DNA from: a virus
Taxonomy: Duplodnaviria; Heunggongvirae; Uroviricota; Caudoviricetes
Length of the DNA stretch: 3,888 nt
Strand: one strand, 5' to 3'
Virus record (IMG/VR): IMGVR_UViG_2703718835_000005
The position numbers and the translations under genes are program-made. Shown one piece after another: positions 1 to 3,094 of the stretch (positions are counted from its first letter, which is position 1; each line of letters opens with the position of its first letter). Under the pieces are notes generated by a model, which was not told the DNA's origin, made no database searches, and saw nothing but the letters and a program-made list of their open reading frames with translations.

Positions 1-1032
1 TCAAAAAATTGCTATTGATGTTGGTAGTGTTGCCAGCGGATTAAACCGTAATGCAGTTTCCAGGTGATCCGGTGCCAGATGTGCGTAACGCATAGTCATT
101 TTTATGTCGTGATGTCCGAGGATTTTTTGCAAAGCAAGGATATTTCCACCCGACATCATGAAATGCGCCGCAAACGTATGGCGCAGAACGTGTGTCAGTT
201 GACCGCGAGGGAGCACGATAGACGTTTTTTCCATCACGGATAAAAATTGAAAATAGCAGTCTGTAAAGAAATTGAACCCATCAAGCGCCATGATCTCTTC
301 GTAAAGCTCTTTACTGATAGGGATGCTTCTGTTTTTCTTCCCCTTCGTTCTTACAAAGGTAATTCGGTATTTGGTCACTTGCGAGCGGGTAAGATTTATT
401 GCTTCTCGCCAGCGTGCGCCTGTGCTTAGGCATATCTTGACTACCAGTGCCAGAATTGGGTCCTGACGTTTGCAATCAGCCAGCAGTTCAACAATCTGCT
501 CATGGGTAAGCCATGCCATCTCTTTTTCTGCGATGGTGAATTTTCGCATGTTCTCCAGTGGGTTCGGATACGACCATTCACCCAGGCGGGATAGTTCGCT
601 AAAAACACTACTTAGATAGCTTTGCTCTAGGTTAATGGTGACCGGGCTTGCTCCTTTCTTCCATTTCTCGCTGAAGTAGATCTCACCTGTCAGGCGTTTA
701 TCTCGATAGTGGGCAAACATTTTAGAGGTTAGATCAGTTGCAAGGGGATTGCCCAGAGCGTCAACCATCAGCAGCAATTTGTCATAGACATGCTGCCCAG
801 CAGTCAGTGATTTACCATGTAGTTTGAACCATAGCTCAACCACGTCTTTCAGTGTTCGACGATCCACTGATTCACCTAGCCAGGGCTTTGCTTCGGTTTC
901 TTCCATCGTGTGACGCTCAAAAGCCAGTGCTTCGCCTTTGGTGGCGAATTGTTTACGCACACGACGCCCACTACGTCCGGCGGGGTAACATTCGCAAAGC
1001 CATTTTCCTGTGGTGAGTTTTCGTACAGCCAT
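1..1032 (-). CDS. int: Tyrosine-type site-specific integrase (P2/186-family phage integrase), 343 aa from the ATG at 1032-1030; stop codon at 3-1
   Basis: Seen in translation: N-terminus MAVRKLTTGKWLCECYPAGRSGRRVRKQFATKGEALAFE is typical of P2/186-type integrases; tyrosine recombinase motifs are present (LSTGARWREA, HVLRHTFA, ILGHHDIKMTMRYAHL with the catalytic Tyr). On the - strand GGAGGG (complement of 1041-1046) lies 8 nt upstream of the ATG at 1032. The ORF track extends to 1110 (MYGRS...) but that 26-aa extension has no RBS and would contain the candidate promoter/LexA box, so the shorter start is preferred. Confidence 0.9.
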   Translation of the reverse strand: MAVRKLTTGKWLCECYPAGRSGRRVRKQFATKGEALAFERHTMEETEAKPWLGESVDRRTLKDVVELWFKLHGKSLTAGQHVYDKLLLMVDALGNPLATDLTSKMFAHYRDKRLTGEIYFSEKWKKGASPVTINLEQSYLSSVFSELSRLGEWSYPNPLENMRKFTIAEKEMAWLTHEQIVELLADCKRQDPILALVVKICLSTGARWREAINLTRSQVTKYRITFVRTKGKKNRSIPISKELYEEIMALDGFNFFTDCYFQFLSVMEKTSIVLPRGQLTHVLRHTFAAHFMMSGGNILALQKILGHHDIKMTMRYAHLAPDHLETALRFNPLATLPTSIAIF

Positions 1033-1056
1033 AAAAAATGCCCTCCAATAGAGAGC

Positions 1057-1085
1057 ATTTTTACTGTATGTATAACCAGTGTCAA
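1057..1085 (-). promoter_or_regulatory. Candidate sigma70 promoter reading leftward into int: -35 TTGACA (complement of 1080-1085), 17-bp spacer, -10 AAAAAT (complement of 1057-1062)
   Basis: Seen in sequence: perfect consensus -35 hexamer; the -10 is weak but keeps the critical A at position 2 and T at position 6. The predicted start (~1050) lies just upstream of the int RBS (1041-1046). The LexA-like box fills the spacer. Function is inferred. Confidence 0.3.
1062..1081. promoter_or_regulatory. Candidate LexA (SOS) box TACTGTATGTATAACCAGTG (CTGT-N8-CCAG core)
   Basis: Seen in sequence: 16/20 identity by hand to the E. coli LexA consensus TACTGTATATATATACAGTA, with CTG and CAG triplets at the correct spacing and an AT-rich centre. 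A CCAG right half occurs in the natural uvrB box as I recall it. It is the only CTGT-N8-CAG-like element I found in the window, and it sits in the spacer of the candidate int promoter. Confidence 0.45.
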
Positions 1086-1220: not shown

Positions 1221-1412
1221 TTATCGTGAGTTTTTAGTACAGATTTTTTTGGATTTACTAATAGTTCCATCATTGCAAACGAATTTGCCATCTGAGGTAC
1301 AGTGAGAAACACCTCCCTTTTTCCCTGAGCAGGGATAATTTCTAGCATAGGTAGCTAGTGGGTTTAATAACAAAGAACATGACAAAACCACAAAAAATAC
1401 CTTACCAAGCAT
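1221..1412 (-). CDS. Small secreted cysteine-rich protein (63-aa precursor; predicted signal peptide, ~40-aa basic mature peptide with 4 Cys); lysogeny-expressed moron candidate
   Basis: Seen in sequence: ATG at 1412-1410 preceded by GGGAGG (complement of 1418-1423) with a 5-nt spacer; the start is only 15 nt downstream of the cI stop, same strand. Translation [23 protein letters not shown]|[40 protein letters not shown] has a short n-region, hydrophobic core and AxA-like signal peptidase I site (TYA). Region is AT-rich (~37% GC by hand count). Function unknown. Confidence 0.6.
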
Positions 1413-1427
1413 AATTTCCTCCCGGTA

Positions 1428-1997
1428 CTATTTAACATACTTGACTGTTAAACTTATAATTTTACCAATTATTTCAATGTCTTCTATCTTGCATTCGAAG
1501 GCTCTGTTTCCACCCTCGACGAAGATTCTTCCACCGGGTAAACGAGTAATGTCACGGATCGTTATTTCGCCATCAATACTTATTACCCATTTACCATCAC
1601 GTATATCATCAAATTCCTTATCACAAATAAATTCAGAATTATTATCTGTGATTACAAAAAGATTCTTGAATGTCGACGGTAGAAATTCTCTATCGAAAAT
1701 ATAAAAACCGTCTTCACACAAGGCCCCATCAGATAATACATATTTAGCAACTTCCATAGTATTTGTATTACCTGAAGTTTGCTTTGAACCATGCCCGGTT
1801 GTGAGCCAATTAAGCGAGGTGCCTGTTTCAAGGGCGCACTGGATTACCCATTCTGCTGGGAATGAGTCACGCATGTAGCGTGTGGCGAGTGTACTTTTAG
1901 AGATTCCTAAATGATCGCACAACGCCTGTCGAGTCTTGAATCCATAAGCTTCTACCATGCGCTCTATGGCGCCTCGTCCGCCTTTCTCCAAATTCAT
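1428..1997 (-). CDS. cI: Phage 186-type CI immunity repressor (N-terminal HTH domain plus C-terminal oligomerisation domain), 189 aa from ATG at 1997-1995
   Basis: Seen in translation: N-terminal HTH-like segment (AYGFKTRQALCDHLGISKSTLATRYMRD), and a C-terminal region (IRDITRLPGGRIFVEGGNRAFECKIEDIEIIG) compatible with 186 CI architecture as I recall it. GGAG (complement of 2003-2006) lies 5 nt upstream of the ATG at 1997; the GTG at 2003 used by the ORF track would overlap that RBS. Position is divergent from the apl/cII operon and upstream of int, as in phage 186. Confidence 0.8.
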   Translation of the reverse strand: MNLEKGGRGAIERMVEAYGFKTRQALCDHLGISKSTLATRYMRDSFPAEWVIQCALETGTSLNWLTTGHGSKQTSGNTNTMEVAKYVLSDGALCEDGFYIFDREFLPSTFKNLFVITDNNSEFICDKEFDDIRDGKWVISIDGEITIRDITRLPGGRIFVEGGNRAFECKIEDIEIIGKIISLTVKYVK

Positions 1998-2021
1998 GGT
2001 CACTCCAAGTGAACTTTTATC

Positions 2022-2376: not shown

Positions 2377-2403
2377 ATGTTTGATTACCAAGTTTCCAAA
2401 CAT
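2377..2403 (-). promoter_or_regulatory. CII-type operator: inverted repeat ATGTTTG (2377-2383) / CAAACAT (2397-2403), half-site centres 20 bp apart; candidate CII-activated establishment promoter pE reading leftward toward cI
   Basis: Seen in sequence: perfect 7-bp inverted half-sites separated by 13 bp (two helical turns centre to centre); the left half-site is the cII start codon itself (ATG TTT G). From my recollection of phage 186, CII binds ATGTTTG half-sites spaced two turns apart at pE. No good -10 is visible leftward (weak TATTTC, complement of 2354-2359), which fits an activator-dependent promoter. Confidence 0.55.
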
Positions 2404-2886
2404 CCACATTTTGATGAAGCCTGTCGTGCATTTGCACTGCGCCACAATCTGGTGCAACTGGCAGAACGTGCAGGCATGAATGTGCAGATTCTGCGGAACA
2501 AGCTGAACCCAGCTCAGCCTCATTTATTAACCGCACCAGAAATCTGGCTGCTTACCGATCTGACTGAAGATTCAACGCTGGTAGATGGTTTTCTGGCACA
2601 GATTCATTGTCTGCCATGTGTACCGATTAATGAGGTGGCAAAAGAGAAACTGCCACATTACGTCATGAGTGCAACCGCAGAGATCGGGCGTGTTGCTGCA
2701 GGTGCGGTGTCTGGCGATGTAAAAACCTGTGCCGGTCGTCGTGATGCTATCAGCAGCATTAACTCTGTAACACGACTGATGGCGCTGGCGGCTGTTTCAT
2801 TGCAGGCCCGTTTACAGGCTAATCCTGCGATGGCGAGTGCAGTTGATACCGTGACTGGCCTCGGTGCTTCATTCGGTTTGCTGTGA
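2377..2886 (+). CDS. cII: Phage 186-type CII lysogeny-establishment transcriptional activator, 169 aa from ATG at 2377
   Basis: Seen in sequence: AGAGG (2364-2368) lies 8 nt upstream of the ATG at 2377; the ORF track's TTG at 2371 is less likely. The 169-aa length matches my recollection of 186 CII; HTH-like segment [25 protein letters not shown]; gene order apl-cII as in 186. Confidence 0.8.
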
Positions 2887-2893
2887 GGTGCTT

Positions 2894-3094
2894 ATGCTGA
2901 CGAAAGAACCATCATTTGCATCGCTGCTGGTAAAACAAAGTCCGGCAATGCACTACGGTCACGGCTGGATCATGGGTGAGGATGGTAAACGCTGGCATCC
3001 GTGCCGTTCGCAAGATGAATTATTGGCAGAACTATCAACGAAAAAACGGGGGAACAAATGGCTATTGAAGGCGCTGCGGCGACTGTTCCATTAA
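2894..3094 (+). CDS. Small early-operon protein, 66 aa (in the position of phage 186 fil); function unknown
   Basis: Seen in sequence: ATG at 2894 is 8 nt after the cII stop (TGA 2884-2886), with GAGG (2885-2888) 5 nt upstream. Translation MLTKEPSFASLLVKQSPAMHYGHGWIMGEDGKRWHPCRSQDELLAELSTKKRGNKWLLKALRRLFH. The GTG at 2864 used by the ORF track would overlap the end of cII and has no RBS. The fil assignment is by synteny only. Confidence 0.5.
   Translation: MLTKEPSFASLLVKQSPAMHYGHGWIMGEDGKRWHPCRSQDELLAELSTKKRGNKWLLKALRRLFH

Follow-up and report, generated by a model that had tools for sequence, protein, structure and literature searches.

The integrase gene of the 186-type (P2-family) Escherichia coli prophage studied here appears to be served by an autonomous promoter, P_int, which would be repressed by the LexA protein of the host; we assign this reading a probability of roughly 70%. 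Positions 1034-1110 are, as judged from the comparison of related loci, a self-contained control module which travels with int. Because a CII-type inverted repeat and a leader hairpin are present, we interpret this module as a putative two-input promoter and not as a plain SOS promoter. These two elements, a candidate activator site and a predicted RNA structure, go beyond the preliminary description of this DNA, which had drawn attention to the LexA box and the promoter surrounding it.

The window, i.e. the whole stretch of 3888 bases that was analysed, represents the early control region of the prophage. It is 100% identical to DNA of E. coli WL7562, in which the prophage resides between ybjL and rcdA. 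The following features are relevant to the analysis:

1-1032, minus strand: int, tyrosine integrase of 343 amino acids (Pfam Int_N and Phage_integrase; RefSeq annotation), with its ATG at 1032..1030 and its stop codon at 1-3
1034-1062, minus strand: predicted leader hairpin (5' arm 1062..1050, loop 1049..1047, 3' arm 1046..1034; RNAfold)
1049-1051, minus strand: predicted transcription start of P_int, about 7 nt past the -10 hexamer, placed from the hexamer positions
1057-1062, minus strand: -10 hexamer AAAAAT of predicted P_int, 17-nt spacer (promoter scan; a conserved (T/A)AAAT block follows the box immediately)
1062-1081, no strand assigned: LexA (SOS) box TACTGTATGTATAACCAGTG, a single occurrence in the window (consensus match and matrix score)
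1080-1085, minus strand: -35 hexamer TTGACA of predicted P_int (promoter scan; ACATTGAC block conserved)
1085-1110, no strand assigned: CII-type inverted repeat ATGTATG-N12-CATACAT, half-sites at 1085-1091 and 1104-1110 (pattern search)
1221-1412, minus strand: cargo ORF of 63 amino acids, YdcA family, between cI and P_int (ORF list; RefSeq name)
1428-2003, minus strand: cI repressor gene of the 186 type (Pfam Phage_CI_repr and Phage_CI_C)
2123-2344, rightward: apl/cox-like ORF (gene list and Pfam)
2377-2403, no strand assigned: pE CII site ATGTTTG-N13-CAAACAT, the reference for the int-proximal repeat (sequence and position as in 186)
2377-2886, plus strand: cII, activator of 169 amino acids (Pfam Phage_CP76)
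After cII, rightward: fil, DUF5347, DUF2732 and a DksA/TraR zinc-finger gene

The RefSeq annotation agrees with a 343-codon int. The CII protein encoded in the window shares 69% identity with that of phage 186 over its full length. Pfam yielded no match for the 63-residue cargo ORF, whose N-terminus resembles a signal peptide. Neither an Rfam scan of the whole window (E <= 1) nor a tRNA/tmRNA scan detected a known RNA gene; since the Rfam scan is empty, the hairpin belongs to no known RNA family.

In phage 186 cI and int overlap, and a 186-type operon is characterised by an int start which abuts or overlaps the stop codon of cI, without a separate promoter. The window deviates from this organisation as cI and int are separated by a gap of 395 bp containing the cargo ORF and the promoter module; its arrangement is not that of a 186-type operon. 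Between cI and P_int lies a cargo slot whose contents vary among related phages. A 1.7-kb gene annotated as 'chromosome segregation ATPase' (L001/L002, 1596-3272) occupies it in phages KP12 of Klebsiella and 813R9 of E. coli, while in ESSI2_ev040 it is empty. The preliminary description had also considered that the promoter might drive a cargo ('moron') gene. This suggestion has to be abandoned since the cargo gene at 1221-1412 lies upstream of P_int and thus cannot be transcribed from it. Another promoter-like sequence, TTAACA-17-TATAAT at 1432-1460 on the plus strand (11 of 12 matches), is oriented rightward and, antisense to cI, runs into the 3' end of this gene. It is the top promoter match within the scanned region 900-2200 and serves no obvious gene.

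LexA box and core promoter of int

The near-consensus LexA box which the preliminary description had placed at 1062-1081 stands up to quantitative scoring. TACTGTATGTATAACCAGTG matches the published LexA consensus TACTG(TA)5CAGTA (PMC6590174) at 16 of 20 positions with CTG-N10-CAG intact. A position weight matrix was assembled from 25 E. coli SOS boxes, the consensus alone being checked against the paper (PMC6590174). With this matrix the box reaches 23.6 bits, which places it in the upper third of these 25 operators (12.9 to 26.8 bits), and an HI-like index, based on the same operators, of 3.7. The matrix check proposed earlier thus clearly singles out this site, as the second-best 20-mer of the window scores 4.5 bits and none of 2000 window shuffles attains 23.6 bits (shuffle maximum 22.0). 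The loose pattern CTGT-N9-CAG is expected 0.41 times in the window and occurs at least once in 62 of 200 shuffles. Since this pattern alone is not rare, the significance of the box rests on the full 20-mer and its conservation, and the pattern was dropped as sole evidence. Consensus match, score range and overlap with the core promoter, i.e. all sequence properties considered, agree with an E. coli-type LexA operator.

A scan of the minus strand also recovered the leftward promoter with a perfect TTGACA -35 hexamer and the box in its spacer as initially described. Its hexamers match the promoter consensus at 10 of 12 positions and are 17 nt apart. The LexA box fills this spacer, overlapping each hexamer by one or two bases, and ends 29 nt ahead of the int ATG. 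The KP12-type and Pantoea variants of the module fall below the threshold of the promoter scan. We consider it highly probable that int is preceded by a promoter subject to LexA repression, in line with the earlier prediction; this is suggested by a box score equal to that at the tum-like gene of the same prophage and by a position which is conserved across about 19 genera.

Within the 40-kb locus of WL7562 the two top LexA matches, with 23.6 bits each, are the int box and the box at this tum-like gene. The latter is doubled, with two overlapping matches of 23.6 and 15.7 bits (L161, the WL7562 prophage, 30898-30932, outside the window), and precedes a 62-residue tum-like ORF and a DinI-like gene. 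Apparently, the classical SOS input, namely the box at the tum-like/DinI operon, is also kept in the prophage to which the window belongs. A further match of 17.1 bits is found in the same prophage at 27875, inside a DUF262 cargo gene.

Distribution and conservation of the module

For comparison, int homologues together with 3 kb of upstream DNA were taken from GTDB genomes (one per species) and from IMG/VR. A box of at least 15 bits is present upstream of int in 40 of the 74 GTDB species loci. Box-bearing loci stem from about 19 enterobacterial genera, with Int identity down to about 54%; these genera include Escherichia, Klebsiella, Raoultella, Citrobacter, Enterobacter, Kluyvera, Serratia, Yersinia, Rahnella, Pantoea, Pectobacterium, Brenneria, Mixta and others. 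The location of the box is remarkably constant: the distance from its end to the int ATG amounts to 27-34 nt in all but one of 68 unique modules (21 nt in the exception), and among the 39 LexA matches of at least 18 bits within 512 kb of DNA from 77 related loci, 36 sit 40-70 nt upstream of int.

Conservation is unevenly distributed over the module. CTG and CAGT are invariant in related loci and, together with one base of the TTGAC (-35) block, reach an information content of 2.0 bits. The AT-rich centre of the box drifts in sequence yet stays AT-rich (0.7-1.3 bits), and the information content drops to about 0 upstream of -32 relative to the box, i.e. upstream of the distal half-site of the inverted repeat. 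This position-specific conservation corresponds to the pattern of a LexA site and not to a block inherited as a whole. By this measure the LexA box is under selection.

Beyond the module, the upstream DNA shows no relationship from one lineage to the next, and the module is kept with different cargo or with none at all. In Rahnella it is retained where int follows ogr and a terminator, thus not being located beside cI. The box is absent where cI abuts int, as is the case in phage 186 (best LexA score at the cI-int junction 3.4 bits), Yersinia phage 56.17 and the loci L049-L060. Neither P2 nor Vibrio phage yong1 nor Haemophilus S2 has a box upstream of int. Among the loci compared, the module is apparently confined to part of the Enterobacterales int clade. 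Direct LexA control of int had been called unusual for a 186-type phage, and this assessment is borne out: 186 and the phages with overlapping cI and int lack the box, and the only SOS input of 186 named in the literature is p95-tum (PMC7708051).

The module occurs in 744 of 5426 complete E. coli genomes, BL21(DE3) included. A decayed version with inverted repeat and hairpin, in which the LexA box has degenerated to 7.3 bits, is present in Kosakonia arachidis (L071, about 2900-3000); the int match of this locus begins only at residue 13, and the prophage is probably dying. In a review, 'potential SOS boxes' are attributed to intE and to ogrK, the latter being a P2 remnant (PMC6590174). The K-12 ogrK box was ruled out as a relic of the module, as the ogrK region reaches 3.6 bits at most and contains no int. 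The REL606 transcriptome paper (PMC2817434) reports nothing on the int gene of this prophage. In the full-text literature, which was covered in part and thus furnishes no proof of novelty, we found no description of a LexA or CII site at an int promoter of the P2/186 family, the comparative papers on P2 and 186 (PMC3448106, PMC11126057) included.

CII-type inverted repeat and leader hairpin

The CII-type inverted repeat is located directly upstream of the P_int -35 hexamer, which it overlaps by its last base. ATGTWTG-N8-20-CAWACAT matches the window twice, namely at this repeat and at the pE site, with 0.01 matches expected. If one mismatch is allowed, the same two repeats remain the only ones in the 40-kb prophage locus (0.065 expected). 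The pE site at the start of cII corresponds in sequence type and position to the site which NC_001317 (phage 186) annotates at 23435-23462 as 'CII, activate pE' (ATGTTTG-N13-CAAACAT). As in 186, it overlaps the cII start codon (ATG TTT G...); CII would hence bind its own translation start region, and the site would constrain the first codons of cII.

The int-proximal half-site ATGTATG differs from ATGTTTG of pE by a symmetric T-to-A change at one position, and ATGTATG half-sites are also found at the pE-position sites of other phages, e.g. L040. In their predicted geometry the two promoters closely resemble each other. Since the -10 hexamer at 1062..1057 implies a start near 1050, the half-sites of P_int are predicted to be centred at -38 (1088) and -57 (1107), compared with -38 and -58 at 186 pE (PMC6593788; NC_001317). 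Aligned on the sense strand, pE reads CAAACA-TGGTCA-17 nt-CAGAAT and P_int CATACA-TTGACA-17 nt-AAAAAT. Both thus combine inverted 7-bp half-sites of the type ATGTWTG/CAWACAT with the common order half-site, -35, about 17 nt, -10. In addition, the window phage encodes CII, the cognate activator of such a promoter.

P_int and pE differ, however, in several respects. 186 pE has a poor -35 hexamer and negligible basal activity (PMC6593788), transcribes cI (and int) and is devoid of a LexA box. P_int, in contrast, possesses a consensus -35 hexamer, carries the SOS box in its spacer and would serve int only, and its repeat in the window has a spacing of N12. The half-sites of the window repeat are accordingly 19 bp apart from centre to centre and not 20 bp. 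We term P_int pE-like and not a second pE since it shows neither the 20-bp spacing nor the features of weak basal activity; its -35 hexamer is perfect, while the core promoters of other lineages are weaker and below the scan threshold. N12 is found in 35 and N13 in 18 of the 68 unique int modules, the remaining 15 having no repeat at up to one mismatch, whereas all pE sites found have N13. A change of the spacing by 1 bp reportedly lowers the affinity of CII markedly. Furthermore, a consensus -35 hexamer should need no activator, which counts against a role of CII, and 186 is described with a single CII-activated promoter (PMC7708051). The repeat (up to one mismatch, N12 or N13) is tightly associated with the box, being present in 74 of 89 unique box-bearing loci versus 1 of 33 box-less ones, the single exception being a decayed copy of the module. 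Weighing these points, we lean slightly towards an action of CII at the int-proximal repeat. CI was rejected as the protein binding this repeat, because ATGTWTG/CAWACAT is kept in phages whose CI proteins are only 54% identical, while the CII/pE site is conserved. In Rahnella-type prophages a further CII-like repeat, ATGTATG-N13-CATACAA, immediately precedes ogr (L032, about 2567-2600, 2629-2862), which may point to regulation of the late activator by a CII- or CI-type protein in these phages.

The leader between P_int and int is predicted to fold into a hairpin whose 5' arm consists of the -10 hexamer plus 7 nt and whose 3' arm holds the Shine-Dalgarno sequence GGAGGG (1046..1041) and a U-run ending at the ATG. 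For read-through RNA (1066..1027) RNAfold gives a 13-bp hairpin of -17.2 kcal/mol (z = -5.5), whereas RNA beginning at the predicted start (about 1050) is essentially unstructured (-4.8 kcal/mol). As the 5' arm coincides with the -10 region, transcripts initiated at P_int should lack the hairpin. Each leader was folded separately, the stems being too dissimilar between lineages to be aligned for covariation. Folding at -8 kcal/mol or better is seen in 42 of the 47 unique leaders; read-through RNA has a median of -13.3 kcal/mol, RNA that begins at the predicted start one of -0.8 kcal/mol. The stem sequences bear no relation to one another (GCUCUC/GAGGGC, AGCCCUC/GAGGGCU, CACAUUCUC/GAGAAUGUG, ACCCCCUU/AAGGGGGU and others), and still the Shine-Dalgarno sequence always lies within the stem.

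A U-rich tail is found in 29 of the 47 leaders; since 18 lack it, termination is not a general property of them. A simple scan made no terminator call for the window hairpin, because its U-run pairs with an A-run, the stem including UUUUUU as paired bases. The KP12-type leader was scored as terminator-like, and several lineages have a canonical terminator which ends just before the distal half-site. Such terminators, or the hairpin, flank the module, which is consistent with the earlier proposal that int may be expressed independently of read-through from cI. For the hairpin itself, we see about even odds that it insulates int from read-through.

Alternative readings, proposed mechanism and related systems

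Three other readings of the module have to be weighed. The first, which we consider unlikely, takes P_int as a plain SOS promoter: LexA would control int, the repeat would not be a CII site but a UP-like AT-rich element, a relic or the site of another protein, and the hairpin would be the terminator of the upstream operon. The N12 spacing of the window repeat as opposed to N13 at every pE site, the consensus -35 hexamer which makes an activator dispensable, the 15 of 68 unique modules without a recognisable repeat and the single CII target known in the 186 literature (PMC7708051) speak in its favour. It does not account, however, for the conservation of the half-site sequence itself, which goes beyond mere complementarity and equals that of the pE half-site, nor for the position of the repeat relative to the -35 hexamer, which is identical to that in pE. 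Its tight association with the box and the occurrence of only two such repeats in the 40-kb locus also argue against this reading, and the weaker core promoters of other lineages would well benefit from an activator.

A further reading assigns the palindrome to a regulator encoded by the phage itself, namely CI, Apl/Cox or an autoregulatory Int, and explains its likeness to an SOS box by convergence. Palindromes near int are indeed often bound by phage regulators, and LexA binding at this one is a prediction from sequence. Yet the invariant positions are exactly those of the LexA motif CTG-N10-CAG, around a drifting AT-rich centre, and the box is kept both in phages with CI proteins of only 54% identity and in Rahnella prophages of different gene order. 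The Int arm sites (YAYCGCCAYTY) and Apl sites of 186 annotated in NC_001317 look nothing like it, and an equally scoring box is found at the tum-like gene of the same prophage. We therefore regard binding by a phage protein as very improbable. We give equally little credence to a non-functional relic, in which the 5' region of int would have been inherited as a block and int be read through from pL/pE as in 186. Many of the loci belong to closely related E. coli and Klebsiella prophages, so that common ancestry inflates the conservation counts. A relic is nevertheless difficult to reconcile with conservation that is confined to particular positions (2.0 bits at CTG, CAGT and a base of TTGAC, 0.7-1.3 bits in the centre, about 0 upstream) and that holds over some 19 genera and for Int proteins that are as little as about 54% identical. 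The leader stems have changed in sequence while their pairing was kept, a hairpin or terminator would hinder expression by read-through, and int of Rahnella is not located downstream of cI.

The preferred reading is that of a two-input promoter; both protein-DNA contacts, the position of the start site and the effect of the hairpin (termination or occlusion) are predictions in it. The observed sequence features, with their statistics, geometry and conservation, would be integrated as follows. P_int would be a sigma-70 promoter reading leftward into int. In the lysogen, host LexA bound in the spacer would keep int off, and read-through from pL via cI and the cargo gene would be halted or rendered untranslatable by the hairpin. 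The latter would bury the ribosome-binding site of int and, in the lineage of the window, its U-run resembles that of an intrinsic terminator. Upon DNA damage, cleavage of LexA would switch on P_int together with the LexA-controlled tum-like gene. Tum would inactivate CI, whereupon pR fires and Apl (excisionase) is made, and Int and Apl would jointly excise the prophage; Int would already be present when CI is inactivated and Apl is made. Upon infection, CII produced from pR would bind at -38/-57 and probably drive or boost P_int, supplying Int for integration in a manner comparable to lambda pI. Spacer-bound LexA might still block a polymerase recruited by CII. P_int transcripts would begin inside the 5' arm of the hairpin, thus escaping it and being translatable.

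More tentatively, the module may be viewed as a portable cassette of three parts, i.e. a two-signal promoter, a LexA operator in its spacer and a self-bypassing hairpin, which would uncouple int from the cI operon in a large 186/P2-like clade. The two signals of its promoter would then be opposite in meaning, CII indicating entry into lysogeny and loss of LexA the exit from it, and only transcripts born at P_int would escape the hairpin and be translated.

Among known systems, 186 p95-tum resembles P_int in that a host LexA operator on a promoter of a 186-family prophage couples SOS to induction (PMC7708051, PMC12055606). It differs in that it drives the antirepressor gene, located at the opposite end of the early region, whereas LexA would act here on the int promoter. 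Phage 186 has no box at int, while the window prophage has one there in addition to its own tum-like box. In the E. coli HS prophage DuoHS, as in 186, LexA is described as acting only through tum (PMC7708051, PMC12055606). Lambda pI parallels P_int as proposed, since a lysogeny activator (CII) turns on a dedicated int promoter after infection (PMC7708051). Unlike P_int in this reading, it has no LexA input, and the CII protein of lambda is not related to the CII discussed here and recognises another site. This site reads TTGC-N6-TTGC, and after induction lambda int is controlled by read-through from pL and sib retroregulation. The integron promoter PintI, which is repressed by LexA, drives a tyrosine recombinase gene and is overlapped by a LexA box, so that SOS switches recombination on (Guerin et al. 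2009 and Cambray et al. 2011, as cited in PMC3323433). In contrast to phage int, integron integrases recombine gene cassettes, and their promoter has neither a phage activator site nor a leader hairpin. CTX-phi PrstA shares with P_int the direct action of host LexA at a prophage promoter beside a phage-encoded regulator, RstR (PMC3323433), but belongs to a filamentous phage and drives replication genes, and the partner of LexA is a repressor and not an activator. By analogy, P_int may work like a LexA-repressed recombinase promoter such as integron PintI combined with a CII-activated int promoter such as lambda pI.

Phage 186 is among the best-modelled genetic switches, and the present analysis suggests that many of its natural relatives are wired differently, with their Int supply under the direct control of host LexA and probably also of CII. 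If true, one further CII target and one further direct SOS input would have to be added to the 186-type switch, which is now described with one of each. This wiring would explain how variable cargo genes and terminators are tolerated between cI and int, and it would synchronise Int supply with induction triggered by Tum. SOS-inducing antibiotics would then directly influence how a very common family of prophages excises and integrates, as has been shown for integron integrases. The module would also represent a compact natural two-input promoter in which a terminator is bypassed by starting transcription inside it, and could be reused in synthetic biology.

The copies of the prophage in BL21(DE3) and REL606 keep the module but have lost cII, which makes the LexA part of the proposal readily testable. 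In BL21 Star(DE3) (L168, 2125777-2130166 of NZ_CM137359.1) a defective prophage occupies the same rcdA-side site, with cII deleted or truncated and the replication genes truncated. It is intact with respect to int, the YdcA ORF, cI, the tum-like gene and both LexA boxes. Its int module retains all motifs and differs from that of the window by two bases, one located in the hairpin loop and one in the spacer of the repeat.
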